Shown one piece after another: positions 1,798 through 49,800 of a stretch of DNA of 64,000 bases. The stretch comes from a virus: the UHGV virus genome UHGV-0141439; one strand, 5' to 3'. The notes beneath the pieces were generated by a model, which was not told the origin of the DNA, ran no database searches, and saw nothing but the letters and a program-made list of their open reading frames with translations. Position 1 is the first letter of the stretch, and each line of letters begins with the position of its first letter. A program made the position numbers and the translations under genes.

Positions 1798-1841
1798 CCA
1801 ATTGTGTTAGAAAATTCTATTCAATTATCTAACACAATTGG
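1798..1841. promoter_or_regulatory. Perfect 14-bp inverted repeat CCAATTGTGTTAGA-N16-TCTAACACAATTGG (paired operator-like sites)
   Basis: Read directly; lies 7 bp upstream of the rdgC start codon and overlaps its RBS. Confidence 0.6.
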
Positions 1842-1850
1842 ATGTGTTTT

Positions 1851-2504
1851 CTATCCCTTCTTGAAATCAAAGTTGCTTGCGATGGCCTGGAAGGTGCCTC
1901 CAGCCTTGAAATCAATATTTTCGTCGGCTGTCACAGTAATGTTTTTGCCATTAACGCTGATGTTATCGGCTGATTTGACGTTAACACTCCCTCCCGCATT
2001 CACTACTACATCAGCCGGACCAATGATGTATATCTGCCCTGATTCATTCATTCCAATCCTTGAGCCTGCTGCCGTATTCGCTATTTCATATCCACCGCCA
2101 GCCGTTCGCACTTCGAGCACATTGTTGCGGTGAATCACGAAATCTTTTGTCGCCGAAAATTGCGGGCGGGGAGGCGCTCCGTCTACTTCTGGTGGCGTCC
2201 AGCCGCTACCATTGCCTGACGCCTCCGGCGCGACGTTTGGTACTCCTCCAGGCGCATCCTGAGCTGCGCCAACTATCATTGGGCGTCTGGTATCAATTCG
2301 ACCATTAACATCCAGATAAGGAAACTCTACCCATACCAGGTCGCCTTTTACTGTAGGTACAAACGCGTTACCTATGGGTAACAGGTATTCTGCCCAGGGT
2401 AGATCGTCATCAGGAACGCCATTCCAGTCTGGTAAAACACGGACCTGAGCACGCATAAGCCCTGCCGGGTGCACAGTTCCAACAATTTGCGCTCTACGCT
2501 TCAT
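1851..2504 (-). CDS. Baseplate spike/hub-like protein (gpV/gp5-like) candidate
   Basis: 217 aa; N-terminal region resembles an OB-fold and the C-terminus has short G-rich beta-helix-like repeats (GGSVNVKSADNISVNGKNITVTADENIDFKAGG). Assignment by pattern recognition only. Confidence 0.4.
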   Translation of the reverse strand: MKRRAQIVGTVHPAGLMRAQVRVLPDWNGVPDDDLPWAEYLLPIGNAFVPTVKGDLVWVEFPYLDVNGRIDTRRPMIVGAAQDAPGGVPNVAPEASGNGSGWTPPEVDGAPPRPQFSATKDFVIHRNNVLEVRTAGGGYEIANTAAGSRIGMNESGQIYIIGPADVVVNAGGSVNVKSADNISVNGKNITVTADENIDFKAGGTFQAIASNFDFKKG

Positions 2505-3481
2505 TTGTTCGGCACTCCTAATATCATTCGTGTTGTGTAGCCTACGCGGTCTTCAAAGTGCGCAACATTTTTTACTATCAGCTTGCGGGGCATTGATTCA
2601 TCAATGCGGTTTTCCTGGTCATAGCGGTATACGATAATCTCTATTACCATTCCCGGTTTTATATCCGGATTGCCTGCGACTTCTATATCCATTTTGGGGA
2701 CGAGAGACAGCTGCATATTGCGAAGAGTTTCCATATCAGAGTCGGATATATAACGCACTGGGAGTGAGCTATCGCCATATTCGACGTAGCCATCGGTCAT
2801 GGAATACCCAACAAAACGATATTGATTCTTTGCTGTTGTCGCATGTTCCTGTTGGAGTAGGCGCATTTTGGACAAAGTGTATTCTGCTTTAGGGTTATTC
2901 CCCTCGTAGGTAAATGATGGCGTTTGCTTCATCAGATCAGCCAGGGTGTAAAAGTTAAATTCCCCACGGCATACCCAACATAATGCACCTTTGTCTCGCG
3001 CTATCTGCGAGAGCATTTTTGACGGTTTGTCACCGGCATTCAGATGATATGTAACTGCGCGTTTTAGCACGCTGCTGGTAATTTTAAGCTTGCCGGAATA
3101 TGCCTTGAATATAGCGTCTGGTGTTTTGTTGGTATGTAAATTTGTGCGCGGGGAGGGGATCTTAAACCTGCGCACGTCTTCACTGACAGCAATAACGGTA
3201 ACAACATCACCAGCCAGCATTGCAGACGTAACAAAGAAGTCTGTTTTAAAAGTGCCTGCATTACCGTTTGGATCGCCCATTTCAGCCACCAGCGATGCAC
3301 CGTATTTGGCTTTCCAGTCATCAATTACAGTGCCGGTAGCGTCATGAATTTCCAGTTTTAGCAAAGGGGCTTTGAGGCTGGTTTTTTCTACATATACTGC
3401 GGTAAAAATCCAGTCTCGTGGCACTTTGTTATCGTTAATGAGCACTGACTGTAGAAAATATTGTTGTAACTCCTGGGCCAC
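2501..3481 (-). CDS. Hypothetical protein, translationally coupled in a four-gene operon
   Basis: 326-aa ORF; start overlaps the upstream stop, stop overlaps the downstream start. Confidence 0.4.
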   Translation of the reverse strand: MAQELQQYFLQSVLINDNKVPRDWIFTAVYVEKTSLKAPLLKLEIHDATGTVIDDWKAKYGASLVAEMGDPNGNAGTFKTDFFVTSAMLAGDVVTVIAVSEDVRRFKIPSPRTNLHTNKTPDAIFKAYSGKLKITSSVLKRAVTYHLNAGDKPSKMLSQIARDKGALCWVCRGEFNFYTLADLMKQTPSFTYEGNNPKAEYTLSKMRLLQQEHATTAKNQYRFVGYSMTDGYVEYGDSSLPVRYISDSDMETLRNMQLSLVPKMDIEVAGNPDIKPGMVIEIIVYRYDQENRIDESMPRKLIVKNVAHFEDRVGYTTRMILGVPNK

Positions 3482-3484
3482 TTA

Positions 3485-4252
3485 TCACCCCATAGATATC
3501 GAGGTTTCGGTAATAATACGTTTTGCGTCCAACTCCCATGCTGTGATCACGTCTGCAATCACACTTATCGGCGCTTGTGTGGCATAAATACGCTCTTCTC
3601 CAATTGGTGCCGAAACATCCGTAAATCCGACTTCTTTGGCATCCTGTATCGAGCAAATCAGCGGGACCGGGACACGAACAAGGTGAGTGGTTGCTTCAAA
3701 TTGTGTACCTGTCATCAGGCGAAGCCGTGCGCCCAGCGAATTACACATCAGACTCATGGTCGCTTTATCAGTTGCCATTAACGTAACGTCATACGTCAGA
3801 ATGGCCTGGGTGTATTCCAGTTCTGCTAAAGGCATTCCGGTATCCGGTTCGCAAAAACTGGCTACTTTTTTGCGGTCAATCTGCTGATCATCGTTGATAT
3901 AATTGATATCCATAGTGCGTGAGATATTGACCAGGGGGAGAGCATCCCGGTTAATGTTCTGGTTTTCAGGTTTTCTCCCTTGCCCGGCATTTGCGCGACG
4001 AACTGCTTTAAGAAACTCGATCGCATTGTCGAAACGGGCCACATAGACACGCTCTGCTGGTGGACGATTCAGGAATGACGCAAAGCGTTTTTCTTCCGGC
4101 GCGGGGGCCACCAGTAAGATATCAGAAAAGATATTGCTGATTAGCGTAGCAAACGCGTTATCCACGTTTTCAAAGCCCGTGGTCTGGAATTTTCCTGTGC
4201 GTGAGGTTTGCCATTCACCTGTTCGCGCCAGGAGGGTTTTATTTGAAGTCAT
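3485..4252 (-). CDS. Hypothetical protein (operon member)
   Basis: 255-aa ORF; 4-nt overlap with the upstream gene. Confidence 0.4.
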   Translation of the reverse strand: MTSNKTLLARTGEWQTSRTGKFQTTGFENVDNAFATLISNIFSDILLVAPAPEEKRFASFLNRPPAERVYVARFDNAIEFLKAVRRANAGQGRKPENQNINRDALPLVNISRTMDINYINDDQQIDRKKVASFCEPDTGMPLAELEYTQAILTYDVTLMATDKATMSLMCNSLGARLRLMTGTQFEATTHLVRVPVPLICSIQDAKEVGFTDVSAPIGEERIYATQAPISVIADVITAWELDAKRIITETSISMG

Positions 4253-5505: not shown

Positions 5506-5575
5506 AACAGATACCCGGTTACGGACCGGGTTCTGACCAGAGTCCACTTAATACGCACGCTAGTAAGGGCAAAAA

Positions 5576-5914: not shown

Positions 5915-5936
5915 TATAGTAAAACACATACAAAAA

Positions 5937-5970: not shown

Positions 5971-6171
5971 ATGAACATTAAACCTATCCGTACAGAACAA
6001 GATTATGAGGCCGCACTGCGTGCGGTCGAACCGATGTTCGATAACGAACCGGAAATGAATACTCCGGAAGGTGATTTCTTTGAGGTTATGAGTCTTCTCA
6101 TTGAGGAGTACGAGAAGAAACATTACCCAATTCAGCCACCATCACCTGTTGAATCTTTTAACTATCCATAA
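5971..6171 (+). pseudogene. Orphan N-terminal fragment of a YgjM/HigA-type antitoxin (no HTH domain)
   Basis: 66 aa (IRTEQDYEAALRAVEPMF...LIEEYEKKHYPI) resembles the N-terminal half of HigA-type antitoxins; the reading frame stops before any HTH and AT-rich DNA follows. Confidence 0.35.
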
Positions 6172-6192
6172 TAAAAGTAATCAGGATAAGCT

Positions 6193-6921
6193 ATGATGTC
6201 AGAAAAAGTTACAGATAATCCGTCTATAAATGAAACAGAACTAAAATCATTTTCTGAAATAATAAAAGATAAAATATTTAACAAGGTTTTTGCATATGTT
6301 GTCATTTCTTTTCTAATTTTTAACTGGAAGGATATTTTAATTATATTAAAGTCAAAGGACGACATCCTATATACATTATCTATTGTTTTTGTTGGTGGTA
6401 ATGTCCCGTTCTTTGATAATTGGATTGTATCCCCGTGGGTTTATCACGTTGTAATCCCATTTGTTTATGGAGTATTTGCATCTGTGTTAGCTCCTATTCT
6501 CACACTGAAGATATCTAAGCTAACAAGTAAATTATACACTGAAATAAGATATTTAGATGAAGCTGCTGATTATGATAAAAGAATAGAATTGCAAAGAAAG
6601 AAAACAAAGTTAAATCAAGCAACCAATGACGCTAAATATTCAAAACAAATCTTAGATGAAAATGAAAATAAACTTAATGACCTAGCTAAGAAACAGCGAG
6701 AAATTTGCGGCGCGATAAAACTATTGCATACTGATGTTGGCAGTATTATTGAGCTATATAAAAATAAGGGGGTTAGCATTGAATCTCCGCAAGATTTATG
6801 TGATTTTATAGTCGCTATAAAAAGCACATCATTCTATAATGATGACAAGCATTTTAATAAATTGGTGTCTGATATTTCCAGTTTGTTTGATAATACTGGA
6901 ATTGATCTTTCAAAAAAATGA
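6193..6921 (+). CDS. AT-rich membrane protein with C-terminal coiled coil (possible abortive-infection/exclusion protein)
   Basis: 242 aa; three hydrophobic helices then a K/E-rich coiled coil; local GC far below the flanking DNA. Confidence 0.5.
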   Translation: MMSEKVTDNPSINETELKSFSEIIKDKIFNKVFAYVVISFLIFNWKDILIILKSKDDILYTLSIVFVGGNVPFFDNWIVSPWVYHVVIPFVYGVFASVLAPILTLKISKLTSKLYTEIRYLDEAADYDKRIELQRKKTKLNQATNDAKYSKQILDENENKLNDLAKKQREICGAIKLLHTDVGSIIELYKNKGVSIESPQDLCDFIVAIKSTSFYNDDKHFNKLVSDISSLFDNTGIDLSKK

Positions 6922-6928
6922 AAGCCCA

Positions 6929-6966
6929 GCATAAACTACTAGGCTATGTGTGGTTTATGCTTTTTT
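6929..6966. terminator. Bidirectional hairpin terminator between convergent genes
   Basis: GCATAAAC-N16-GTTTATGC followed by TTTTTT on the + strand and preceded by an A-run. Confidence 0.5.
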
Positions 6967-8148
6967 CACGTACTCTATAAACATCTTCTCAGCCTGTTCT
7001 TGTGGCGTTCCAGCCATGACAAGCGCATCAATGAACGCCTGCTTCTTCAGTGCGAACTGATCGGCAAGGCGTTGCTGAAGTTCCTTATTTTTCTGTTTCT
7101 CACGTTGCAAGGCCGCTTCTTTTGCAGCCGCCCGTTTTTTCTGTGCGTCTGACAACTTTCTGGCCCTGGTCAATTGGTCACGTAGCTTGTCGATCTTGCC
7201 GTTGTCCTTTGCCAGTTTTGTACTTAAAGCTGCCTGGCGTTTCTGATAGAGCCTCCATTCGCGTTTGGCGGCTTCAACGTTCGTTTTACTGCTACGATTG
7301 CGATTAAACTCCTTCTCGTCTTCTTTTGAGAAGTGTTTAGTTGTACGGCGGCGATCGTCACCAAATGCAATTTGCGTTGCAGCCTTTTGTAGCGCACGAG
7401 CAATACTCATTTGCCAACTGGCGGACTGTAACCGCGTCATTGAGTGGATCACGTGTTTACAGGCGACGCCTTGCAGCTTCGGGTTGCGAACTTTTGGATA
7501 GGCGTATTCTTTTGGCGGTGCCAGGGCAAAGTTACCCGCAGTGGCGATGTAACGATACCAGTATTGATGACGACCACAGTCACAATCGAAAGACACTCGC
7601 CCGGCGCACAGTGATTTAGTGATTTTGAGAGCTGATTTATCGTCTTCTGCGATGTCATCAACCATCTGATCCCATTCTTCAAAGCGTATCCGGACGATAT
7701 GGTGCTGGTGGACGGATATATCCGATGCTTCTACGCGGATATTAATCACATTGTGGCGAAGAGATACGGGGGTAGCTCTTTTGATACCAGATCCGTCATC
7801 CACGGCGTTATTTGCACGCTTAATATCGATTGCCTGGCTGGATGCCACCAGCTGGGCGTATGTGATGCCAGCCGTCTTGCTGTCATATTTTTCGCGCGTT
7901 TTACTCCGTAGCTTTTCGAAACCTTTCAGGTCGTCTCGCGTGAAGAACGTGCCGCCTTTTTTCTTCCCTAACTTGAGAATATCTTCGGCGGATTTGTTCC
8001 TCAGTCTACCTGGCGTCAGCGTCCGGTGAGCTTGTCGGCGCTTACGGGTTTGTTCTTTCCTGATAATCTCGAATAAACGCGTGAAGTCCTTAGAGGACAG
8101 GCCGTCAGTGATATAGCGCCCGTCCTGGTTTTTCAGGAAATCAGGCAT
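6955..8148 (-). CDS. SWIM-type zinc-finger protein with basic coiled-coil C-terminus
   Basis: 397 aa; CDCGRHQY...CKHVIH fits the CxCxnCxH SWIM pattern. Confidence 0.45.
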   Translation of the reverse strand: MPDFLKNQDGRYITDGLSSKDFTRLFEIIRKEQTRKRRQAHRTLTPGRLRNKSAEDILKLGKKKGGTFFTRDDLKGFEKLRSKTREKYDSKTAGITYAQLVASSQAIDIKRANNAVDDGSGIKRATPVSLRHNVINIRVEASDISVHQHHIVRIRFEEWDQMVDDIAEDDKSALKITKSLCAGRVSFDCDCGRHQYWYRYIATAGNFALAPPKEYAYPKVRNPKLQGVACKHVIHSMTRLQSASWQMSIARALQKAATQIAFGDDRRRTTKHFSKEDEKEFNRNRSSKTNVEAAKREWRLYQKRQAALSTKLAKDNGKIDKLRDQLTRARKLSDAQKKRAAAKEAALQREKQKNKELQQRLADQFALKKQAFIDALVMAGTPQEQAEKMFIEYVKKA

Positions 8149-8470: not shown

Positions 8471-8663
8471 AACAAAGCCTCTCAGTCATAACCTGGGGGA
8501 AACTGTATGCAGGGTGTGAAATGCGAGAAACAGACAGGCCACCAGTTCAGGGGGATGTGGTTCATAAATCCCCTCACTGGTGACAAGTGACTTTCATTAA
8601 TCTTTATGCGGGGGCCAGCTTCATTTGCTGGCATTAGATTAAAAATTAAACGGAGTGAATAAC

Positions 8664-9720: not shown

Positions 9721-10344
9721 ATGAAGGATGGTGTAGTGAAGTTAAGGGCTTTAGGGGCCGCGCTCGCGGCTATGTTGGGATGCGTATCTGCTAATACTGC
9801 CAATGCAACTGCGTTACCTGCACAATTCAGGGCAGGGCAGCAGGTTATGAATAACGCTGGTGGAGATCATTCACAAGCGGCCATTATGGACTTTTGCAAG
9901 AGGGAGGGCATTCCATTACGGCCTGTTGGAACTCAGTTTATTGGTAAAACTGACTTTTGCGTTTTTGCATATACAGCATATCTGACGGACAAAGCTATAA
10001 CAAAAACAGGTTATTCAACCAAAGATACTCTTTCCAGATTAAGTCAGGGATGGCAGCAATTCGAAGTGTATCGCCAGCAAGGATTAGGTGAGTTATTGCA
10101 ACCTCTTTTTATGCTTGCGTTGGTGCCAGAGGGGCAGCAATTTTTGGTTAAAAAGGGAATGCTTCGCCAAAGTGATATTGCCGGGTTCGATAGCATGATG
10201 GCTTATGAGCGCAAACTAACCGAGCAGCGAAATAAAAAACCATCTGCTTCATGTGTGCAAAGTAAAACAGCAGAATACAGTGCAGTAGCCGGGCCTTTAG
10301 CCAAACAAATGGCAGAGCAATGGTGTAAAAAATACGGGCAATAA
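9721..10344 (+). CDS. Secreted protein or lipoprotein
   Basis: 207 aa; N-terminal signal peptide with a possible lipobox (AAMLGC). Confidence 0.45.
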   Translation: MKDGVVKLRALGAALAAMLGCVSANTANATALPAQFRAGQQVMNNAGGDHSQAAIMDFCKREGIPLRPVGTQFIGKTDFCVFAYTAYLTDKAITKTGYSTKDTLSRLSQGWQQFEVYRQQGLGELLQPLFMLALVPEGQQFLVKKGMLRQSDIAGFDSMMAYERKLTEQRNKKPSASCVQSKTAEYSAVAGPLAKQMAEQWCKKYGQ

Positions 10345-10364
10345 GTTACGCAGCGGAGGCAGAA

Positions 10365-10757
10365 TTGAAAAGATTGGCTATTGCTTTACTGGCGTCTTTC
10401 CCTTTGATCGCGAGCGCCGGAAATTTACAAGTTAAGTGCGGTCGGTTTGATATAAAAATCTATCCAGATGCCATATTTCTGAATGGGAATAAGGTTGATA
10501 ACGCACACCGAAAAACTGAATCTGACGTAATGAGCTATGTGTTCCAGGAGTATGCGGAGATGGGGGGAACTTACACGCTGTACTCGCTGGATGTTCCTTC
10601 TCGCGGTGATATGACATTATCCCATCAATGGCAGAACGCCGATGGCGAAGCTCTGCGCGAGGTTAAAACAGAAAAATGTGGCACTTTCCATTCTTTTAAA
10701 GGGAAAGCGCCAAATGTTAAATCTGTGCTTGAAAAACAGCGCGCAGGTGAGCTTTAA
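10365..10757 (+). CDS. Periplasmic protein
   Basis: 130 aa; signal peptide MKRLAIALLASFPLIASA; TTG start per ORF track. Confidence 0.45.
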   Translation: MKRLAIALLASFPLIASAGNLQVKCGRFDIKIYPDAIFLNGNKVDNAHRKTESDVMSYVFQEYAEMGGTYTLYSLDVPSRGDMTLSHQWQNADGEALREVKTEKCGTFHSFKGKAPNVKSVLEKQRAGEL

Positions 10758-11144
10758 ACACCTTTAACCACGGAGATGCCGTTCCCTGCACGATAGCGGC
10801 GGGGAACGGAATTCTCCATCAGGTCACGAATTACTCCCGCCTCATGTAGTTCCACTGTTTCCCAGTATCTGTTTGTCACCAATTACGCCCCTTTCCGCCA
10901 GGGGAAGGTATGAACGAGCTTCTGCTTCGGTTGCAGCCATGACGCAGATATACAGGTGTTTTTGGCAGGAATAGAAACGCCAGATAAATTCAGAATGAGT
11001 TGGGGTGGGGATAGTAGCGATATTGGCAGCCTCCTTTGACTAAGTTAAGGAGCTACCGCGTGAGGTTCCAATCCCGGCACCCGTTTTTCTAAGGTGCCGT
11101 AGAAATATACCCCACGATAAGGCCAGGGCGCAAAAGTCAGTATT

Positions 11145-11312: not shown

Positions 11313-11633
11313 TTTGACACCCCCAGCGCGAGTAAAGAATGCAGATTATCGCGTGAGTGGCGGACAACGAGTGATGGGAAAAGACAGTAGCTGTTCATAG
11401 TGTAGTGACTCCTTGCTTTCGGAGCCGCCTTCGACTGTTCCACGGTCTGGTGGCGGCGCAATAAAGGCTGGAACACCGTGAGTCAACGGGGGCTTTTCAG
11501 CCACCTATATTGCACCGCCATAGGTATAGCGGCGGCAATAATACGAAAAACTAAACAGTTTGTCTCAAAAAGTTGACCGGTGTGCCAATCGGTAGTGAAT
11601 GTACATCGGAGAAATTTACAATTCAACTTAAAA

Positions 11634-11650
11634 TGTTAGAAAACTAATTT
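11634..11650. promoter_or_regulatory. 17-bp operator-like site TGTTAGAAAACTAATTT
   Basis: Matches the window-wide consensus; overlaps the ref stop codon. Confidence 0.5.
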
Positions 11651-12270: not shown

Positions 12271-12300
12271 TGTTAGATATTCAAAATTGATTTTCTAACA
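12271..12300. promoter_or_regulatory. Paired operator-like sites TGTTAGA-N16-TCTAACA
   Basis: Read directly; sits in the divergent region between ref and the 12495 gene. Confidence 0.6.
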
Positions 12301-16366: not shown

Positions 16367-16396
16367 TGTTAGATTGTTGATTTTAATTTTCTAACA
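16367..16396. promoter_or_regulatory. Paired operator-like sites TGTTAGA-N16-TCTAACA
   Basis: Read directly; about 45 bp upstream of the 16439 start. Confidence 0.6.
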
Positions 16397-16438: not shown

Positions 16439-17434
16439 ATGAGTGCAATAATCACCCCATATGTCGTAAATGAAACTGGTGTGGCTGTCTTTCCTGTAGA
16501 TAAGCCCACCAGCAATTACATCGGCGCAGGCCGCCGTTTTCTTATCTCCCCATTGCCGCGCGAACAGGCTGAAAACACCCCTGATGGCGTCGTGGACCTG
16601 AATTATTCCCTGGTTGCCAACCAGTCACTGACACCCTTTTTTCAAAGTGAGCGCGTATTTAATGCGTTAGGTGGCGAGGATTCTATCGTTCACTGGGTTA
16701 GCACCAACATTCACGATTGCCAGGCGCATGATAAGCGCGATTGTAGCCACCAGCTAACCACTCACTTCTATAACGGTTCTGCCGTTCGCCTGTGCTGGAA
16801 GCATGATGCGGAATACATGATGAAGGGGTACAGCAAGCTGGACGACCAGTTATCCCTGAATCGCGCCAACTGGGTTATGAACTGGGCTGCGAGCGAGTTA
16901 AAACTACCGCCAGAACGCGATCTGAGCATGGTTGAACTCACTTTTTGGGCCATTCGCCGGAATCTGAAAGATGAGCTGCCAGATGAAGCCGGGCGCATTG
17001 CATTTTGTCAGCCAAAAACTGAAATCCCTACCGGTACGCTGAAAGAATCAGATATCACCTGGGAGCGCAGTACGCGCGAGCTGGTGGACATAACCGCAGA
17101 GCAGATCGTCAACCTGTCTGTAGATGAGGATTCTGGCCTCCTATATATGCGCCGTCCAAAAACCTTACTCGGAAAAAGCCCGGCTTATCTCCGCTTTGTG
17201 GTTTCTCGTCCGTGCATCGGATGCGGTGGCAAAGTTAACCACCCGTTCATGTACCGCGCCCGCTCGTTAAACGAACACGACCGCTGGGCTGTTCCTCTTT
17301 GCGATGACTGCGCCAGAAGCGCAGAAAACGATGTCCGGGCATGGGAAAAAGCACATGGCATACGCCTTTACGTAGCCGCTAACCAGCTTTTTGACTTCGC
17401 CATCGAGCGCGGAGTGATCACGTTCAATAACTGA
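16439..17434 (+). CDS. Prophage protein with C-terminal Cys/His-rich (DUF968-like) domain
   Basis: 331 aa; C-terminus RPCIGCGGK...HPFMYRARSL...PLCDDCARSAEND. Confidence 0.35.
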   Translation: MSAIITPYVVNETGVAVFPVDKPTSNYIGAGRRFLISPLPREQAENTPDGVVDLNYSLVANQSLTPFFQSERVFNALGGEDSIVHWVSTNIHDCQAHDKRDCSHQLTTHFYNGSAVRLCWKHDAEYMMKGYSKLDDQLSLNRANWVMNWAASELKLPPERDLSMVELTFWAIRRNLKDELPDEAGRIAFCQPKTEIPTGTLKESDITWERSTRELVDITAEQIVNLSVDEDSGLLYMRRPKTLLGKSPAYLRFVVSRPCIGCGGKVNHPFMYRARSLNEHDRWAVPLCDDCARSAENDVRAWEKAHGIRLYVAANQLFDFAIERGVITFNN

Positions 17435-26633: not shown

Positions 26634-26650
26634 TGTTAGAAATTTAATTT
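26634..26650. promoter_or_regulatory. 17-bp operator-like site TGTTAGAAATTTAATTT
   Basis: Exact consensus; overlaps the cre stop. Confidence 0.5.
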
Positions 26651-27828: not shown

Positions 27829-27862
27829 CTAACTTTAAATAATGCCAATTATCTAAAGTTAG
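27829..27862. other. lox-like site: 13-bp inverted repeats around an 8-bp spacer (CTAACTTTAAATA-ATGCCAAT-TATCTAAAGTTAG)
   Basis: Read directly; 12 of 13 arm positions are symmetric; about 150 bp upstream of cre; same 34-bp architecture as loxP but different sequence. Confidence 0.6.
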
Positions 27863-28034
27863 AAATTTAGGAATTTTTTTCCTTTCCGCGCAGATGGGCA
27901 ATGCATTGCTGGTGTGGGCTTTAAGTTATGCCTGGCAGTTTTTAAGCAGAATTTTCTAAATTGGATGATAAAAAAATGCATCTTGATCCTTTACTCACCC
28001 TGTTATTCGGCATAGATTTGTCATAGTAATTTTA

Positions 28035-28051
28035 TGTTAGAAAACTAAATC
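28035..28051. promoter_or_regulatory. 17-bp operator-like site TGTTAGAAAACTAAATC
   Basis: 12 bp upstream of the 28063 start codon. Confidence 0.5.
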
Positions 28052-28062: not shown

Positions 28063-29100
28063 ATGAGTAAGAAGTCGATCGAGAAAGAGTACAAACGGTT
28101 CCTGCAAACCGCTGAACGGTGGAAAGAGCTGGTGGTCGCAAACTCTGTTTTCCATGATACCAGTTATTCCGGCGAGGAATTCCGCCATGTTGCACTAACA
28201 CATGATCAGAATGTGCTAGAAGAAGCTGAAAAGTGCCTCACAGAATGGAAAGCCTTTGTTGACTTGTGCCGTAACGCTGACGGCAAAGCGTCTAACATTG
28301 TTGAGTCTGTATATTCTCCGATCCCATTCATTATCGAGGACACAAATCAAAGCACGCATATTGTTGTGCAAAGCGCGACCACCACCCGCTCATTTACGCG
28401 CGAAAATCTGCTCAAAAAATATGATGCAATTATAAAGAAAAGCCTGAAAAACAAGATATTTTCGCAGATTGTTGGTGCACTTGAAGAAGAGCGCCGTTTT
28501 TTCGCATCAGAACCTGAAGGGGAAGTTTACCGGGCGCGCAAAGATGGATACACAGATGTAGTGCTTACAACAAACATTGAAGGCAGCAATGCTCTGTCAC
28601 GATTCAGGGTAGGCGCACACGGAGCCTTAGTGTTCGCAAAACTTCCGAACACCACAGTGCCCGTTGTTAATAATGTCGGCGAACGTCGCAGCATTACTAT
28701 TTATTCTGGGGTTGAGTCGATACCTTGCGGCCTGCTTGGTGACTTTAGTCTCTATCGCGTTCGCGATCTGGAGAAACACCAACCAAGCTATGTTGCGAAG
28801 TCATACATCTTGCGAAACATCGACATCCGCAATGAGAGCTTAAAGAACAAATCAGCCAAAATGCTTGAGGAAGCCGATCCGGCTATTCGCCATATCATTG
28901 AGCGTAAAATACAGACAGCACGCGAAGCGATGGCGAGACTGAATAAAATGGATCTGGAGTTGTTAGACGTAATGATGACATCCGGAGATGACCTGACAGG
29001 CATAAAACTGACAGACGCGCGGAAAAGATACGGTAAAACCATAGAAGAACGTTACGGGTTCACTTTCTCCCAAACACAGCACGCCGCTAAACTCTGGTAA
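28063..29100 (+). CDS. Hypothetical 345-aa protein; candidate C1-type immunity repressor by position only
   Basis: Convergent with pacB, next to lox and cre (the place c1 occupies in P1), with an operator-like site over its promoter; no sequence motif recognised. Confidence 0.4.
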   Translation: MSKKSIEKEYKRFLQTAERWKELVVANSVFHDTSYSGEEFRHVALTHDQNVLEEAEKCLTEWKAFVDLCRNADGKASNIVESVYSPIPFIIEDTNQSTHIVVQSATTTRSFTRENLLKKYDAIIKKSLKNKIFSQIVGALEEERRFFASEPEGEVYRARKDGYTDVVLTTNIEGSNALSRFRVGAHGALVFAKLPNTTVPVVNNVGERRSITIYSGVESIPCGLLGDFSLYRVRDLEKHQPSYVAKSYILRNIDIRNESLKNKSAKMLEEADPAIRHIIERKIQTAREAMARLNKMDLELLDVMMTSGDDLTGIKLTDARKRYGKTIEERYGFTFSQTQHAAKLW

Positions 29101-30680: not shown

Positions 30681-32044
30681 TAGTCATCCTCCGGCGGTTC
30701 TATCGCAATATCATCATCTCCGGCGTCATACCCTGCATCTGATGCATCATAATCACCGTAAATTTCAGCCGTTGCCGAAGGGTCAATGTCCAACTCTTCA
30801 TCGTTGGCCTCGAATTCCCCAGCCTTACGCTCGCCATTGTGGTCGTAATCTCCGCACCCCAGATCTTCAACAATGGTTGCCACATCCGCCCGGCGCTCTG
30901 CCAGCCATTGCGGATGGTTAGCCTGAAGCGATGCAAACTCCTTCGCTTCTTTGTCCAGCTGTTCATCATCAACATCATTGATGTCAGAAACTGGAGGTTC
31001 GAGAAGAGTGATAGCTTTCGCCGCGCGCGCCGCGAGGATAGCCGGGACACTGACACCCTGACGCTCGATGTATTCAGCAACACCGATATCGTCCAGCTCC
31101 TCGCGCTCACGCATACGTATAGCGGCGGCGATAACTCTGGCTGCGCGTGCGTCAGCGCCAATGCGATATTCAATCTCTTTGCCACGCTGTTCGGCCTGTA
31201 GGCGTGCTAATTCGAGTTTTTCTCTGGCCTCGGCCTCTCTGAATGCTTGCTGGCGAGCACCCTGACGAAGTTTTTCATCACCCTGTCGCAGCTTTTGTTC
31301 GGACTGATATATCGCTGCCAACCTACTGATAAAATCGTTCATGTAGTAGGCCGCGTCACTGATTAGACCGAGAAGTCGCTGCCCAGGGTGCATTCCTTCT
31401 GGCTGTTCATCACCCAGGGCGTCTATCTCCGCCTGTAGGCGTTCGGCCTCCTGATCAACAATGCTTTGGTACTGAAGTGCGCGTTCTTGCGCCATTTGAA
31501 TTGCTAACCGCAGGTGCTCTTCTGCGCCGTTCTTCATCATGTCGCGAGCCACACTCGTAGTGGGCAACGTGGCACGCTGCACAGCACCGCCAGGGATCAT
31601 TGCTGAAGATCCCTCGATTTTTGAGGCGCATTTATCTTCGGTGGGGATCATTTTCGCCATTTTTTCGCGCAATGATCTCCTGACAGATTCTTTTATCTCA
31701 TTGTTATTATTTGCATTATTTTCATGATCCGAAGTTTTCTTTCTCGGCATACTTCGGAAAGAACCTGTGCCCTGCGAATTGTCAATTTCTGTAAATTTTG
31801 TTGTTTCTGTACCCTCTTCTGGTCTTTTTTTTGCTCTTCCTGCCCGTTTTTTTTGAGGTGATTTGGTGCTTTTTTTTGTAGTCTTCACCTGCGACCGCAC
31901 CTCATTTTTTTTCATATTGAGATGCTTTCTGGCGGTATTGAAGCTAAGGTCGTGTTGCTCGCAGTATTCCTTTACGGTGATCCCTTTTTCTTCACGCAAC
32001 GCTATAAATTTGGCGCGGTGCTCTTCCCAATTAACCAGACTCAT
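30680..32044 (-). CDS. pacA: Terminase small subunit (PacA-type) with acidic C-terminus
   Basis: 454 aa; N-terminal HTH-like segment; stop overlaps the pacB start; contains a GATC cluster. Confidence 0.55.
   Translation of the reverse strand: MSLVNWEEHRAKFIALREEKGITVKEYCEQHDLSFNTARKHLNMKKNEVRSQVKTTKKSTKSPQKKRAGRAKKRPEEGTETTKFTEIDNSQGTGSFRSMPRKKTSDHENNANNNNEIKESVRRSLREKMAKMIPTEDKCASKIEGSSAMIPGGAVQRATLPTTSVARDMMKNGAEEHLRLAIQMAQERALQYQSIVDQEAERLQAEIDALGDEQPEGMHPGQRLLGLISDAAYYMNDFISRLAAIYQSEQKLRQGDEKLRQGARQQAFREAEAREKLELARLQAEQRGKEIEYRIGADARAARVIAAAIRMREREELDDIGVAEYIERQGVSVPAILAARAAKAITLLEPPVSDINDVDDEQLDKEAKEFASLQANHPQWLAERRADVATIVEDLGCGDYDHNGERKAGEFEANDEELDIDPSATAEIYGDYDASDAGYDAGDDDIAIEPPEDD
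31595..31729. other. Cluster of five GATC sites (TGATC(C/T) repeats in both orientations) inside pacA: candidate pac site
   Basis: GATC at 31595, 31608, 31646, 31674 and 31726; GGGATCATT occurs twice. Confidence 0.4.
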
Positions 32045-32433
32045 AAAGCAACACCACGCTTTTTAACGGCGGCATTCCACAGCTTATTCGCCATGTCCAC
32101 CAGCTCTCGTTGCTCTTTTCGCGCCTGTTCGACTGATTTCCTGCTACAGTTTTTAACCAGTAAGCTACCGTATTCAGGGGTGCGCCCGCGCACCTTGAAC
32201 TGATATCCGTTCAGGCCATGCAACCAGTATTTCCGTGGGTAAACACGATCATCAAGCTCACAAATAGCTCGGCTTGACCGCACAAAATGCCGAATGATGT
32301 TGGTTACACTTACTCGTGAAACATGAAGGTGAGGATATTTTTCTTTAGCTAGAGTGGTGATTTCGGTGACTGTCAGATAGCAGTCAGCCCTAATCATGAT
32401 ATCCGCAATTTCTGCGCTGCTGATATGCTCCAT
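32041..32433 (-). CDS. Lpa-like late-promoter activator candidate (by position upstream of pacA)
   Basis: 130-aa ORF overlapping the pacA start (ATGA); an operator pair lies upstream. Confidence 0.4.
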   Translation of the reverse strand: MEHISSAEIADIMIRADCYLTVTEITTLAKEKYPHLHVSRVSVTNIIRHFVRSSRAICELDDRVYPRKYWLHGLNGYQFKVRGRTPEYGSLLVKNCSRKSVEQARKEQRELVDMANKLWNAAVKKRGVAL

Positions 32434-32511: not shown

Positions 32512-32541
32512 TATTAGAAAATTAATTCCATTCATCTAACA
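32512..32541. promoter_or_regulatory. Paired operator-like sites TATTAGA-N16-TCTAACA
   Basis: Read directly; upstream of the Lpa-like gene. Confidence 0.55.
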
Positions 32542-33962: not shown

Positions 33963-34038
33963 TGGTGGCCCCTACCGGACTTGAACCGGTGACCGTGCGA
34001 TTATGAGTCGCCAGCTCTAACCACTGAGCTAAAGGGCC
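33963..34038 (-). tRNA. tRNA-Ile2/Met type, anticodon CAU
   Basis: Hand-folded 76-nt cloverleaf with encoded CCA; closely resembles E. coli ileX. Confidence 0.8.
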
Positions 34039-34208
34039 AGATTACTGTTAATTCCGCTTACGCTTTTTGCCAGAACCGCGTAAGGCTTTTGCCGCTTGCT
34101 CGATCCCATATGCAACCACCAGCAGAAATAAAAATGTCCAACCAGGGTTCTTATCGGCAAAGGCCCAAAAATCCATCACTTGCAGCTACCTTTTAAGACA
34201 AAACGCCA

Positions 34209-34223
34209 TTGCTGTTAGATTGC
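34209..34223. other. Hairpin CCTGG-TGCCT-CCAGG
   Basis: Second member of the covarying hairpin set. Confidence 0.4.
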
Positions 34224-34450
34224 GGTGCCTGGTGCCTCCAGGTGACGTTAACCAGTTAACAATTAACGCCGGGATGTTTGATTTAACCACTAAGGAGGAT
34301 TGTTTTAACTGTTCCGCGTGCGCTTAGCCGCATTCACCGCAATGGTAAGAGCACTTGGCTGGCTGGGCGGCGATGACGCCTGTACGCATTTGGTGATCCG
34401 GTTCTGCTTCCGGCATTCGCTTAATTAGCCAAATACTCTTAACGTTGCGC

Positions 34451-34537
34451 TGGCGGAGAGTAATGGAATCGAACCATCATCGCTTGCGCAATGGGACGGT
34501 TTTCAAGACCGCTTGAGCACCATGCTCCCTACTCTCC
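34451..34537 (-). tRNA. tRNA-Ser, anticodon UGA (class II, long variable arm), tentative
   Basis: 87 nt; GGAGAGT/ACTCTCC acceptor stem, loop CUUGAAA, GGTTCGATTCC T-arm, encoded CCA; D-arm spacing is atypical. Confidence 0.55.
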
Positions 34538-34682
34538 GGCCGTTGTGGTGGCCGGTACTGAATCTCCGGCATACGGTGCAGCCAATTAGGACTACGGACG
34601 ATCACCGCTCGCGAAAGGGAAGATTTGCGGCCGCATTTCCCTAACATCCAAGAAAGCTATCGCATCAGTCTGCGAATCCACC

Positions 34683-34774
34683 ACAACGTTGAGAACACTG
34701 GTTGTCACGCTGCAACGCAACATTTATTCGTAGATTGGGATATGACCCCGTTACGTCAGTGTTCTCAACGTTGT
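34683..34774. repeat. Perfect 18-bp inverted repeat ACAACGTTGAGAACACTG with 56-bp spacer
   Basis: Arms at 34683-34700 and 34757-34774. Confidence 0.6.
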
Positions 34775-35002
34775 AGTACCGGTTACGGTTCCGGCCAGGC
34801 CTCTTCCTCAACGGGGTATTCTCCATACGGACTACCGTTTATTGGTCGTTCCTGCGGTTTATGTTGTGAAGCCAGATGCTTATCTTCTGGTTGCTTCAAA
34901 GAGCTGCACTTCATCACAACGGTAAGGGTACTTCGTAGGGATTCGAACCCTCTGCCAAGCACGGCGATCTCCGACGTCGCAAAATACCCTTACCTGTTGT
35001 GT

Positions 35003-35078
35003 TGGTGCCGATTAACGGACTCGAACCGCTGACATCCTGCTTACAAGGCAGGCGCTCTACCAACTGAGCTAAACCGGC
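35003..35078 (-). tRNA. tRNA-Thr, anticodon UGU
   Basis: Canonical 76-nt cloverleaf, loop CUUGUAA, encoded CCA. Confidence 0.8.
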
Positions 35079-35080
35079 AT

Positions 35081-35157
35081 TGGCGATGGTGGGTGGATTC
35101 GAACCACCGACCGACAGCTTAGAAGGCTGCTGCTCTATCCTACTGAGCTACACCATC
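35081..35157 (-). tRNA. tRNA-Arg, anticodon UCU
   Basis: Canonical 77-nt cloverleaf, loop CUUCUAA, encoded CCA. Confidence 0.8.
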
Positions 35158-35660
35158 ACTTGCCGGTTACGTCTCCGGCGAGGGCTTCCACCTCCGTATG
35201 CTTTTCGGCGCACCGCGCCCTGGCTGCAATTCGGTAACAGGGGATGCACAACCCTGGCTTCCAGCGTGATTAGCGCCTTCAGCATGACGGGATATACCCG
35301 TAACCAACAAACTTTCCCATATACCATCAAACAATGGCTGTTACGCGGGAGGGACGTAACAGGTAAGGGCGCTGACCAGAAAGACCTGACCCTTCTCATT
35401 CATCTGGTTAATCACACCAGCGCCCTTGCCTGTTATGCCTCCCCGTTCCCTAATACACAGACGGGGACACTCTGCGGTCGATTTTTTGACGGGGGACGAC
35501 TCATACCCCGTGGCGTCTGGCTTCTTAGGCCGCTACCATCATCAGATCATCGTTTGCATTTACTTTAATGGTCGGTTTCTAAACCGCCGCAAAGCCGCTA
35601 ACCATGACGAAAACCCTAAAAAAGCCCACCCGAAGATGGGCAAATACGCTACATCTCACA

Positions 35661-35739
35661 CAAGAAAGAAGCCGACTGCCTGAGCTGGATTCACTTTCAA
35701 ATGCCCGCAGAAAGGGAACACAAGTCGGCTTCTTTCTTG
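35661..35739. repeat. Perfect 17-bp inverted repeat CAAGAAAGAAGCCGACT with 45-bp spacer
   Basis: Arms at 35661-35677 and 35723-35739. Confidence 0.6.
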
Positions 35740-35856
35740 ATGCGGCACTCTCTCCGCCCGTCACCGCTCTGTCTCGGTTGTCGCGTTTGCCACGCCAGCC
35801 ATAACGAGGTTTAAAGTCTTTGCACGTTTCCATCACTCGACTGCCGTCTGTGGCTG

Positions 35857-35871
35857 TTCGTTGCAGCGGGG
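35857..35871. other. Hairpin GGGGG-TGCCT-CCCCC
   Basis: Third member of the covarying hairpin set; followed by the palindrome GGGGATATCCCC. Confidence 0.4.
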
Positions 35872-35956
35872 GTGCCTCCCCCTGGGGATATCCCCGGCCT
35901 TACCCCATTCTTTCAAGACACAATGCAAGGCCGCATCCGCATAGGTGCATTACCGC

Positions 35957-36021
35957 AACATTAAGGAGACTTAGGGCAAAAGGTAATCGCCACAAAAAAA
36001 TCCCTATGCCTCCTTAATGTT
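35957..36021. repeat. 12-bp inverted repeat AACATTAAGGAG with 41-bp spacer
   Basis: Arms at 35957-35968 and 36010-36021. Confidence 0.55.
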
Positions 36022-36030
36022 GAGGATGTG

Positions 36031-36088
36031 CATTGATGATGATTCGATGCGGCGAGTCCCGTTACTCTCTGCCGGACCATCATCAATG
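36031..36088. repeat. 11-bp inverted repeat CATTGATGATG with 36-bp spacer
   Basis: Arms at 36031-36041 and 36078-36088. Confidence 0.55.
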
Positions 36089-36221
36089 AACATCTTAAAA
36101 AGACCTTCCGTGGCTCAACATGTCTTGTCGTTTACTCCGTAAAGTGCTCTCTCTGAAACCACTTTACGCACTAAACCTGCTGAACTTTGGCTTGCTCGGT
36201 GCCAAAGCGAATCCCTGTATG

Positions 36222-36238
36222 CATGTAATTTTCTAACA
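36222..36238. promoter_or_regulatory. 17-bp operator-like site (reverse orientation)
   Basis: Plus strand CATGTAATTTTCTAACA. Confidence 0.45.
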
Positions 36239-36377
36239 CTTTAATTTGTTATTTGCTGGTGGGCGAACAACAACCAATAAGTGACTATCAAGCCCAGCAA
36301 GCGAAATGTGGCAACGCTCCACCAGCAAGGAAAATTCTAAGTTAAGTTACTCTCACAATCAATATGTTCGTTTGGTG

Positions 36378-36394
36378 AAATTAGATTTCTAACA
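36378..36394. promoter_or_regulatory. 17-bp operator-like site (reverse orientation), with a degenerate partner TGTTCGT 16 bp upstream
   Basis: Plus strand AAATTAGATTTCTAACA; overlaps the stop region of the 406-aa gene. Confidence 0.5.
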
Positions 36395-37627: not shown

Positions 37628-37644
37628 AAATTAGTTTTCTAACA
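37628..37644. promoter_or_regulatory. 17-bp operator-like site (reverse orientation) upstream of the 406-aa gene
   Basis: Plus strand AAATTAGTTTTCTAACA. Confidence 0.5.
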
Positions 37645-38230: not shown

Positions 38231-38722
38231 TTAATCAAGACAAACATATTCCGTGATAGCTTTTATGGCTTCAGCGGCACTGCGCGCCTCAAAGCAGTAG
38301 TAACCTGCTTCGGTGAGGCGAGTCATCCAGACGAGTTGTTCGGGAGTCAGGCGATTTCTCCCATGTTTCATCTCAATGCGCATTCCGTGGTATCCCCCAC
38401 AAGCAAGGTCTATAGAAAGATCGGGATATCCCTTCTTTTGGCCCTCTGCCACCATTTTTATTGCCGTCCTTATGCCTCGCAGACCGCCGTTTGGAGTGGC
38501 GTGTGTATGCTCATACACATAGCGCATATTGCGATACAACCAATCCAGGACGCGTACCTGCTCGTAATGCTCATGGTTCCTTTTGATTAGATCTGGGTTT
38601 TTCTCCAGTTCTCTGAGAGCTGCGGCATGTGGTGATGTTTCAGAATATTCACTGCGACGCCTTCTTTTTCTCGCTATTTTTCTAACACACCCATTGATAG
38701 TAAATAAGCGAAATAATAACAA
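38231..38722 (-). CDS. VRR-NUC domain nuclease (PD-(D/E)xK-type)
   Basis: EHYEQVRVLDWL...HATPNGG...GYPDLSIDLA...GMRIEMKHGRNRLTPEQLVWMTRLTEAGY matches the VRR-NUC pattern; start codon uncertain (TTG at 38722); an operator-like TCTAACA lies inside the 5' end. Confidence 0.5.
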   Translation of the reverse strand: MLLFRLFTINGCVRKIARKRRRRSEYSETSPHAAALRELEKNPDLIKRNHEHYEQVRVLDWLYRNMRYVYEHTHATPNGGLRGIRTAIKMVAEGQKKGYPDLSIDLACGGYHGMRIEMKHGRNRLTPEQLVWMTRLTEAGYYCFEARSAAEAIKAITEYVCLD

Positions 38723-38861
38723 CTGCGTTAGATTTGTAAAACAAGAGAGATACTACTCAAGGCTGGGCTATATGCAACAGGTCGGATTTGCTTTTAGAGT
38801 AAAAAGTGACCTTAATCAACAAGGAGGGTAAATCGCATGGCATTTACCCAACTTGTTATTT

Positions 38862-39122
38862 TTAAAGGTTTATTTTATCCGGTTCGGATATTTCTGTGAT
38901 TGTCTTGTCGATTGCGATCAACCACCCTTCATAGGTTAAATCATCAACAAGCTCTACCAGTTTGTCTTCTGTATGAGGGAAGTATACCCAGCTCCAGCTC
39001 GCTGGGTTTTCTGCTTTTCGCAGCGTAAAAACCTTCTTGTAACGGTGAAACTCAAGGACATACCCCTTCGATATGGAATATTCCTTTAGGTCTTCGACCG
39101 TAAACCTACGATTCTTTCGCAT
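38862..39122 (-). CDS. Small hypothetical protein
   Basis: 86-aa ORF. Confidence 0.35.
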   Translation of the reverse strand: MRKNRRFTVEDLKEYSISKGYVLEFHRYKKVFTLRKAENPASWSWVYFPHTEDKLVELVDDLTYEGWLIAIDKTITEISEPDKINL

Positions 39123-47072: not shown

Positions 47073-47096
47073 AAAAAGCCCCGGCCTGGCCGGGGC
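47072..47096 (-). terminator. Hairpin terminator ending the ant operon (minus strand)
   Basis: GCCCCGGCC-T-GGCCGGGGC with an A-run on the + strand (U-run on minus). Confidence 0.55.
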
Positions 47097-47104
47097 ATCA
47101 CGCT

Positions 47105-48233: not shown

Positions 48234-48272
48234 AGTTACGGCCTCATTCGTAGGTTTAACAACCTGCGCCCC

Positions 48273-48453
48273 GCTGCTAAACGGGTGGCAGGACGTGACG
48301 GGGTTAGCAGACTGGCACGAATGAAACCAGCAGGCCGAAGCCTCCCCATCACGCCCCACCATAATTCGGGCGTAACGTGGTTTTACGGACACAAAAATAC
48401 CGCAATATCGGATATCTGCGGTTGTCCGCATTCGTATTCAGGCTGCTAAACCC
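48273..48453 (-). ncRNA. Candidate C4-like antisense-RNA control region
   Basis: On the minus strand GUUUAGCAGC occurs at 48453-48442 and 48282-48273 and its complement GUCUGCUAACCC at 48312-48301, giving alternative pairings just upstream of the icd RBS. Confidence 0.3.
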
Positions 48454-48576
48454 GGTCGCAGAATTTGCTACGACGACATGAATATAAGCCTGAAAACATG
48501 GAAGATCAACTAAAAATTTCAGCAATGGATGACTTCAGTCGATGATGCAGATCATACATTCCGATTTAGAAACAGC

Positions 48577-48593
48577 AAATTAATTTTCTAACA
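48577..48593. promoter_or_regulatory. 17-bp operator-like site upstream of the icd/ant module
   Basis: Plus strand AAATTAATTTTCTAACA; degenerate partner ATTTAGA 16 bp upstream. Confidence 0.5.
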
Positions 48594-48647
48594 CAAATTA
48601 TCGGGCGAGCATTTTCCGATCATTGGGATGCTTTGTAGACACACAGG

Positions 48648-49610
48648 TCATCCCCTAAATCCCGCAGGGATTGACCAATCCTCACGGTCAAATTCAGACC
48701 GATAGCCACGCTGTTTCATCAGGTCAAAGGCTTCACCAATGGTTGCACACCCCTGGGAGCCAGAATAATCCATTGAGAAATCCAGGGCACTGGATTGTTT
48801 AGGCTTATTCACTGCGGTAGCGGCACTACGTATCCATGCAAATTTTTTTGCCAGCTTTTCAGCGGTACGATACAGAGCCTGCCGTTTTGTGTGCCCCTCG
48901 TCTGAACGACGCTTTGCAGCTCTCGCTTTTGCCGCCGCCAGGCAGTGGTTGGTATGTTCTTCCCTGATTGCTGTTTTTTTATCCAGTACCCCGTGATCCG
49001 TTTGAGAACTATCTGCTGGTGAAGCCTTTGGCTGAACCGCGCATGATCTTTCTCTTCTTTTGGCTATAGAGTGACTCTTATTTTCTATTGGCTGTTCATT
49101 TTGAACATGGGGGGACTTGTTCAATTTGAACAGGGGGTTCCCAGTTTCAAAAAAATAACGAACCTTTGAAATCAACTGCTTAACCAGTTTTGTGGCGTTG
49201 GCAAATTTGATGCCCTGCTTACCCCCTATCTCCATTGCTACATGAATGAAGTGGAGAAATTGTGTCGTAAACCGATATACGTTACACACCTGGGCATTGT
49301 TATTCGCTACCTGATGTTGCTTAACAAGCATTCCGCACTTCGTCGCTTCAGCAAATGCCCGGCGTACAGTAGAAATACTGCGTCCTGTAATCTCGGACAT
49401 ATCAGCATATGAGCGACGGATCATGTATTCATCGGTAGACCCTGCCAGGTTGGCGAACTCGGCAATAATGGCGCTATGTGAAGGAGAAAGAAGACCACTA
49501 TGACGAGCAAAAAAACTCAACTGATGACCTTTGATTTTTTTGTGGTATTCAGTGTTGTTTTTATACTCAGAAGTGTTGAAAGTTACTGAAACTGAATTTA
49601 AAATATTCAT
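48648..49610 (-). CDS. HTH-domain protein; RepL-like replication initiator candidate
   Basis: 320 aa; HTH-like MSEITGRSISTVRRAFAEATKCGML; position upstream of the immunity module. Confidence 0.35.
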   Translation of the reverse strand: MNILNSVSVTFNTSEYKNNTEYHKKIKGHQLSFFARHSGLLSPSHSAIIAEFANLAGSTDEYMIRRSYADMSEITGRSISTVRRAFAEATKCGMLVKQHQVANNNAQVCNVYRFTTQFLHFIHVAMEIGGKQGIKFANATKLVKQLISKVRYFFETGNPLFKLNKSPHVQNEQPIENKSHSIAKRRERSCAVQPKASPADSSQTDHGVLDKKTAIREEHTNHCLAAAKARAAKRRSDEGHTKRQALYRTAEKLAKKFAWIRSAATAVNKPKQSSALDFSMDYSGSQGCATIGEAFDLMKQRGYRSEFDREDWSIPAGFRG

Positions 49611-49671
49611 CAGATAGTTCCGTGCAAAAATCTATCTACCGTATAAATCTATGCCAGTGGATTTATACACC

Positions 49672-49707
49672 AAAAAGCCGCTTCTCAGCGGCTTTTGCTT
49701 TTTTTGG
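49672..49707. terminator. Bidirectional rho-independent terminator
   Basis: AAAGCCGC-TTCTCA-GCGGCTTT flanked by an A-run and TTGCTTTTTTT. Confidence 0.65.
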
Positions 49708-49783
49708 CAGTCGCTACCGGAGCAGTGACCGCGATCCTACTCGATCACATCGGACAGGATCAACAGTGTATATAAATACACTA

Positions 49784-49800
49784 TGTTAGAAATTTAATTT
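49784..49800. promoter_or_regulatory. 17-bp operator-like site TGTTAGAAATTTAATTT
   Basis: Exact consensus; lies between the stop at 49811 and the terminator. Confidence 0.5.

Follow-up and report, generated by a model that had tools for sequence, protein, structure and literature searches.

A dispersed 17-bp motif as the probable operator of a D6-type C1 repressor in a P1-related plasmid prophage

The C1 repressor of phage P1 acts through an asymmetric 17-base-pair (bp) site that occurs at ~12–20 dispersed places in the genome, and a single C1 molecule is bound per operator. A similar arrangement, apparently based on a different DNA word, is described here for UHGV-0141439, a virus genome from which one stretch of 64,000 nucleotides was analysed (the window). 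In this window, an asymmetric motif of the form (T/R)TGTTAGAAAAYTAAWTT recurs at dispersed sites and is proposed, with a probability of about 0.8, to serve as operator for the D6-type C1 repressor, the product of 28063–29100. The original prediction, which was made from the letters of the window, had already suggested a C1-type regulon with a different DNA specificity, and this reading, in which the regulatory plan of P1 is executed with another operator sequence, is supported by the positions of the sites, the homology of the repressor, and the co-variation of the motif with the C1 clade.

By megablast, the window belongs to the D6 group of plasmid prophages related to P1, with ~90% identity to Escherichia phage D6 across the immC region and 96–98% identity to E. 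coli plasmids of 88–93 kb. Collinearity between D6 and the window extends from hrdC-dmt, by way of rox/c1, as far as the tail-fibre inversion segment. E. coli, Shigella, and Salmonella commonly carry phage-plasmids of the D6 type, the immunity circuit of which is unannotated; no operators are annotated in either D6 record (AY753669; NC_050154/MF356679). The P1-type C1 regulon is already well known as a kind of system, and the c1 gene of D6 is annotated; the sequence and regulon of the D6-group operator, the geometry of the paired sites, and the series of operators across clades appear to be undescribed in the records and literature reached. The literature searched, which did not include the D6 genome paper, contained no description of D6 operators and no link between C1 and Tus, and there is roughly one chance in three that the D6 operators were described in earlier literature.

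A dispersed asymmetric motif in non-coding DNA

Twelve loci together hold 16 strong half-sites of the 17-base motif, TGTTAGAAAWYTAATTT, and an additional weak but conserved site lies at 38671–38687. When every GTTAGA was listed with its context, the 12 loci resolved into four 30-bp inverted pairs (TGTTAGA-N16-TCTAACA) and eight single sites. Both the ~17 sites and the four pairs of the original prediction are recovered, and the interval 1798–1841, given there as one of the pairs, is an extended palindrome around the 30-bp pair at 1805–1834. Each site consists of a strongly constrained 9–10-bp core (TGTTAGAAA[A]) and a looser AT-rich tail. The information content of the motif is high at positions −1 to 17 and collapses at position 18, which indicates that the 17-bp definition is right.

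The counts lie far above expectation. The degenerate 17-mer occurs 6 times exactly (0.00 expected) and 12 times with up to 3 mismatches (0.85 expected), the 9-mer core TGTTAGAAA is present in 12 copies against 0.67 expected, and the pair pattern is found 4 times with at most 1 mismatch against 0.18 expected, rising to 6 matches with at most 2 mismatches; two of the sites classed as single (36378 and 48577) have degenerate partner halves at the pair spacing. In a leave-one-locus-out matrix, all held-out half-sites rank within the top 26 of ~128,000 positions, showing that the set of sites is not circular. The motif words are the most over-represented 8-mers of the window after Chi, and the same procedure, applied to P1 as a positive control, returned the C1 operator words established there by experiment. 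Each of the 12 loci falls in non-coding DNA, which makes up 9.8% of the window (binomial p = 7.5e-13), and these loci head units that must be silent in the lysogen.

These numbers bear on the simplest alternative, that the motif is a chance AT-rich word or the functionless remnant of a dispersed repeat. The AT-rich tail is the only feature that favours it; 6–12 copies are observed against 0–0.85 expected, every locus is non-coding, divergent relatives conserve the core more than its flanks, and the flanks carry no repeat homology. Shuffle controls and conservation refute this alternative, whose remaining probability is extremely small. A motif count no higher than the shuffled background, which the original prediction had named as one possible refutation, failed to materialise.

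Several further matches were considered and rejected as operators. The weak match at 27858 belongs to the edge of the rox site, a candidate for a second c1 operator near 27960 failed to score, and the over-represented word TAAGGTCG has unrelated flanks and is therefore no motif. The rox site itself, the target of the Dre recombinase (27830–27861), differs by one base from D6 rox, a T to C change at position 24 that breaks the symmetry of the right arm. Chi, GCTGGTGG, is the top over-represented 8-mer of the window, with 48 copies against 5.9 expected, 18 on the plus strand and 30 on the minus strand (e.g., at 922, 4056, 28128, 36255, and 36326); it also ranks first among 8-mers in P1 (50 copies against 7.1 expected) and in all the relatives examined. 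An extra GTTAGA at 38726–38732 (+) lies back-to-back with the weak site at 38671–38687, at a distance of 39 bp, and is conserved in D6.

A distant C1 homologue and putative operators that vary with it

By sequence comparison, the open reading frame (ORF) at 28063–29100 is a distant but genuine C1 homologue. Its product is 90% identical to D6 C1, and the alignment with P1 C1 covers 239 residues at 20% identity (E = 6e-8). The complete plasmid NZ_CP034790 encodes an identical C1. PHROG 1678 is matched end to end by the window C1 (E = 7e-159), by P1 C1, and by the homologues from Citrobacter and Pantoea plasmids, and PF27008 (Phage_P7_repressor_C1) is a precomputed match for P0001, a relative 96% identical to the window C1, and for the relatives of 53–45% identity. 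The NCBIfam C1 equivalog model gives the window C1 a score of 23 bits against a cut-off of 500, which makes the protein a member of the family and not an equivalog. The family (PHROG 1678/PF27008) is small, with only ~107 clusters at 50% identity among 1.8 billion proteins, and 157 plasmids in PLSDB carry a C1 of this family.

Extraction of the 20 C1 operator half-sites annotated in the P1 record AF234172 confirmed the consensus ATTGCTCTAATAAATTT, in agreement with PMC8546580, and the form given in the original prediction was correct, as was its statement that the window motif differs from it: ATTGCTCTAATAAATTT has 0 matches in the window with up to 3 mismatches. Conversely, the window motif has no strong match in P1, while D6 carries it at every orthologous junction. 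The sites nevertheless occupy the positions of P1 C1 operators, upstream of ref, lpa, icd/ant, repL, and c1, as had been proposed, and this placement matches the AF234172 annotation, which has an experimental basis, position by position.

The motif changes with the repressor. In relatives whose C1 is 72–81% identical to that of the window, the 9-bp core is 95% conserved, compared with 80% for the aligned flanks (Fisher p = 3e-8). TGTTAGAAA(A) is kept where C1 is at least 45% identical (L008, L012, and L015–L017), and in the contigs with C1 identities of 53, 50, and 45%, TGTTAGAAAA is retained and the tails are changed. Plasmids with a C1 of 21–29% identity lack the window motif and carry another word with a TTAGA core at the corresponding junctions. 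In Citrobacter (28% C1), this word is CC-TTAGAAT-TA, and each of its 7 sites is intergenic and falls at a junction whose orthologue carries a site in the window (hrdC, ref, recombinase-stop, c1, lpa, pmgS-stop, and pro/repL); the Citrobacter-type word CC-TTAGAAT recurs in Leclercia (28% C1), and Pantoea (29% C1) has TT-TTAGAATTGYRTGTG. Serratia (21% C1) has AATTAGAC, including an inverted pair upstream of c1, although this motif is weak by counts alone (6 against 0.58 expected). The P1 form (20% C1) is ATTAGAGCAAT, and no clear motif was found in the Enterobacter element L013 (24% C1). At least five classes of putative operator are found at conserved genome positions: TG-TTAGAA-A, CC-TTAGAA-T, TT-TTAGAA-T, A-TTAGAC, and A-TTAGAG-C. 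Since the P1 operator reads AAATTTATTAGAGCAAT on the other strand, TTAGA is common to all operator types. The P1 and D6 operators may be related either by a shared AT tail or by a shared TTAGA core on the opposite strand; orientation at the orthologous single sites favours neither alignment, being split 2 against 2.

Of the available arguments for assigning the motif to C1, the strongest is the conservation of positions and core combined with flanks that depend on the clade; it is an indirect one. Relatives in which operator positions are fixed and words are changed would provide a natural experiment in how a monomeric repressor and a dozen sites shift their specificity together.

Several observations weigh against the assignment to C1. 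The link between motif and repressor rests on position, homology, and co-variation, and as the genomes diverge as a whole, another co-evolving regulator could fit the co-variation. The tail is no more conserved between relatives than the flanks, the sites point both ways with respect to the regulated gene (5 forward, 3 reverse), and a strict sigma-70 consensus scan around six sites found no strong promoter over the operators. In addition, tblastn and blastp searches of the window found no homologues of P1 Lxc and Coi, which means that the circuit is no copy of that of P1 and that the modulators of C1 differ or are unrecognisable.

The motif could accordingly be a true cis-regulatory site with another binder, such as a phage regulator (e.g., the helix-turn-helix protein beside the toxin–antitoxin pair), an Lxc-like co-factor, or a host nucleoid protein; C1 would then read a different sequence. 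Genome-wide divergence could mimic co-variation with any phage protein, and the missing Lxc and Coi homologues imply that unrecognised immunity factors must exist. The set of sites, however, reproduces the P1 C1 regulon gene for gene, the c1 promoter included; Chi aside, the motif stands alone as a strongly over-represented word, just like the C1 operator in P1, and a second dispersed motif that might be the target of C1 was not detected. The site of a host factor, moreover, would be expected to stay constant between closely related enterobacterial hosts. Another binder is therefore considered unlikely, and C1 remains the preferred one. An 86-aa ORF at 38862–39122 (−) occupies the exact lxc position, downstream of ulx and darB; it has no detectable similarity to Lxc and is a positional candidate for an analogous co-repressor.

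Sites, neighbouring genes, and proposed mode of control

The putative operators and the features associated with them are listed in Table 1.

Table 1. Putative operators and associated features in the window
Feature	Coordinates (strand)	Context	P1 counterpart
Bivalent operator	1805–1834	Inside 44-bp palindrome 1798–1841; 14 bp upstream of hrdC-dmt operon start 1791 (−)	Odmt
Truncated icd remnant	10902–11000	After C4-like RNA 11446–11525	
Second C4-like antisense RNA	11446–11525 (−)	40.2 bits, below Rfam gathering score 45, E = 7e-6; downstream of operator 11634	
Single operator	11634–11650 (+)	Overlaps ref stop codon; heads second c4-icd-type module (− strand)	Position of Omat
Bivalent operator	12271–12300	Between ref (−, start 12222) and divergent early operon (+, from 12383)	Oref
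Bivalent operator	16367–16396	43 bp upstream of pdcB-like (DUF968/HNH) gene at 16439	None annotated
Single operator	26634–26650 (+)	Overlaps stop codon of Dre (Cre-like) recombinase gene; upstream of orf117-dut operon (−)	None annotated
Single operator	28035–28051 (+)	11 bp upstream of c1 ATG; D6 site at 199	Oc1
c1	28063–29100 (+)	345 aa; C1-type prophage repressor, proposed motif binder	
Bivalent operator	32512–32541	Left half TATTAGA; upstream of late-gene activator lpa (32041–32433, −)	Olpa
Single operator	36222–36238 (−)	Upstream of 1-kb leader, tRNA cluster, and tciAB (− strand)	Oban (Obanab)
Single operator	36378–36394 (−)	3 bp downstream of pmgS stop; upstream of tRNA/tciAB unit	Oban
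Single operator	37628–37644 (−)	11 bp upstream of pmgS start (37617)	OpmgR
Weak operator	38671–38687 (−)	TGTTAGAAAA core without mismatch, tail poor; upstream of probable true start of pmgM-like gene (GTG with RBS, as read from the sequence)	
C4 antisense RNA	48281–48366 (−)	a1/b1 target element 48435–48487; directly downstream of operator 48577; Rfam RF01695 71.9 bits, RF03163 52.2 bits	
Operator	48577–48593 (−)	c4-icd-ant immunity module; degenerate partner half at 48564	Oc4
Operator	49784–49800 (+)	Between pro stop codon and lytic replication gene repL (48648–49610, −)	OrepL

Many of the individual sites recur in relatives. The pair at 1805–1834 is found in D6 at 64116/64145 and that at 16367–16396 at 80709/80738, and L017 also has a site upstream of DUF968. 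The Citrobacter-type motif occupies the junctions corresponding to 1805–1834 and, between pro and repL, to 49784–49800, and the recombinase-stop junction (26634–26650) carries the clade-specific motif in L008, L009, L010, L011, L015, and L016. The core of 36378–36394, which has its degenerate partner half at the 30-bp spacing (36365–36394), is conserved in L008 at 68% local identity; 37628–37644 is an island of conservation in L008 and L012, and the junction of the weak site 38671–38687 carries the clade motif in L009 and L010. The overlap with the ref stop codon at 11634–11650 is likewise seen at P1 Omat.

At several operators, a promoter search with a scoring matrix gave plausible but weak −35 boxes that lie within the site or at its 3′ edge. 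Predicted −35 boxes fall inside the operator at 12271–12300, and the predicted promoter at 16367–16396 (TTGATT-17-TATTTT) has its −35 box within the operator. A −10-like TAAAAT lies immediately upstream of 37628–37644. At the c4 operator (48577–48593), the −35-like TTGCTG overlaps the 3′ end of the site, as in P1 Oc4/P2c4, and begins at operator position 15–16, matching P1; the a1/b1 element and the C4 RNA are followed downstream by icd and then by the antirepressor.

On this basis, one C1 molecule would bind each 17-mer and block RNA polymerase, with the site lying over the −35 box (orf88-like, pdcB, and c4), just downstream of the −10 box (pmgS), or between the promoter and the start codon (c1). 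The regulon silenced by C1 would include lpa, repL, the two c4-icd-(ant) modules, ref, hrdC-dmt, and the early operons from 12383 and 16439, and would extend to the tRNA/tciAB unit, pmgS (and pmgM), the orf117-dut operon, and c1 itself, where the operator at 28035–28051 likely mediates autoregulation. The 30-bp pairs would hold two C1 molecules on the same face of the DNA, as their TTAGA cores are 21 bp, or two helical turns, apart, and may hold lpa, ref, hrdC-dmt, and pdcB more tightly in check. Repression would be lifted by an Ant-type antirepressor, itself under the control of C1 and the C4 RNA.

A further possibility is that the motif is a promoter element, either an early-promoter or UP-like sequence or the target of an Lpa-type activator. 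The sites are AT-rich and located at promoters, and the P1-type late box is not enriched in the window, so that Lpa may have another target here. A promoter element would not be expected in mixed orientation to the downstream gene or in four inverted pairs; there is no conserved −10 box or other hexamer at a fixed distance, the genes downstream of the sites are early, immunity, and replication genes and lpa rather than the late morphogenesis and lysis operons, and at c1 a site is located past the promoter region and before the start codon. This explanation is accordingly regarded as very unlikely, less probable than a different binder, and the role of C1 operator is retained for the motif. The window encodes an Lpa homologue with 31% identity. 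The −22 box of P1 late promoters, AARTKACTT, occurs 3 times against 2.4 expected (at late operons, 8585–8593 only), and the late-promoter signal of D6-type phages probably also differs from that of P1.

A defined operator and regulon would predict which elements are homo-immune and which are hetero-immune, and would mark early and immunity promoters. It would also supply an orthogonal repressor/operator pair beside the already exploited Dre/rox system from the same region.

At 9778–11069, the first icd-ant module of D6 has been replaced, leaving the 33-codon icd remnant (10902–11000) and the sub-threshold C4-like RNA; two plus-strand ORFs in the gap (9721–10344 and 10365–10757) have signal-peptide-like N-termini. 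The leader at 35158–36222, which lies between the operators (36222 and 36378) and the tRNA cluster, holds no convincing ORF and gave no Rfam match to a known RNA; its position is that of the P1 dicF-like region downstream of Oban. In the tRNA cluster (33963–35157), ARAGORN and Rfam place all tRNA genes on the minus strand, where they share the direction of tciAB and follow the operators. By contrast, the RefSeq record of D6 puts these genes on the plus strand and omits a tRNA-Met (D6 6084–6159, in the stretch 6084–7850), and a tRNA-Arg(tct) in the window stands in the place of a tRNA-Asn(gtt) in D6.

The predicted fold of C1 and comparison with known systems

Tus binds an asymmetric ~21-bp site as a monomer, and the predicted structure of the window C1 may resemble that of Tus. 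An AlphaFold2 model, built from 11 sequences, has a mean predicted local distance difference test score (pLDDT) of 85 and a predicted template-modelling score (pTM) of 0.57. A Foldseek search of this model against the PDB (E ≤ 0.001) returned four E. coli Tus–Ter DNA entries as its sole matches (E = 1e-7 to 4e-6); the alignment spans ~300 columns with template-modelling scores (TM-scores) of only 0.37–0.42. A fold search of BFVD gave no matches. Sequence comparison gave no corresponding signal: the Pfam Tus family PF05472 matched none of 79 C1 family members, hhalign of C1 against a Tus profile gave a probability of 6% with the 79-sequence C1 profile and 0.2% with a shallow alignment, and a PDB sequence search with C1 found nothing. 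In the E. coli genome, TerB precedes the tus ATG by 10 bp, and the putative c1 operator precedes the c1 ATG by 11 bp. A resemblance between Ter and the operator (TATGTT...CTAA) was discarded, as 9% of shuffles score as well (p about 0.09).

The relation between C1 and Tus is thus a predicted similarity of fold that fits an asymmetric operator, with homology not established; a Tus-like fold would give a structural reason for the asymmetry of the site. The broader proposal, that C1 repressors are structural relatives of Tus that read asymmetric operators with an invariant TTAGA core and with flanks serving as a diversifying “immunity code”, is tentative and judged more doubtful than not. If the likeness of fold reflects common descent, the taxonomically narrow Tus–Ter system of Enterobacterales and the repressors of P1/D6-like prophages, which share the same hosts, would also share an origin, and a confirmed Tus-like fold would provide the first structural model for C1 action and a lead on the origin of Tus. 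The two systems differ in function, since Tus halts replication forks and C1 is a transcriptional repressor.

Phage D6 (AY753669; MF356679/NC_050154) is about 90–97% identical to the window at the DNA level, has a 90% identical C1, and carries the motif at matching junctions. Unlike in the window, several partner half-sites are degenerate in D6 (lpa and ref), one further motif site lies upstream of orf52, beyond the range of the window, and the first icd-ant copy, of which the window has only a remnant, is present.

In both P1 and the window, homologous repressors (PHROG 1678, PF27008) appear to control a common set of genes (c1, lpa, repL, c4-icd-ant, ref, hrdC-dmt, the tRNA/tci unit, and pmgR/S), some of the sites form overlapping inverted pairs, and the operator overlaps the −35 box, a predicted one in the window, of the c4 promoter at an identical operator position. 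In contrast, the operator sequences have in common only the TTAGA pentamer, on the opposite strand in P1, and/or the AT-rich tail. The pairs of the window measure 30 bp (17+17−4), with cores pointing inward and 21 bp apart, whereas those of P1 measure 28 bp (17+17−6), with cores pointing outward; bivalent operators are located at lpa, ref, hrdC, and pdcB in the window and at ban (Obanab) and c1 (Oc1ab) in P1. The window C1 has 345 aa, with an extra C-terminal helical region, compared with 283 aa for P1 C1, and the window, unlike P1, has two c4-type modules and no detected Lxc/Coi homologue. The lambdoid CI/Cro immunity systems resemble the proposed circuit in that a master prophage repressor silences lytic promoters and regulates its own synthesis. 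However, lambdoid repressors act as dimers on symmetric operators at two control regions, whereas the window, like P1, has scattered asymmetric sites, here putative operators spread across more than 48 kb.

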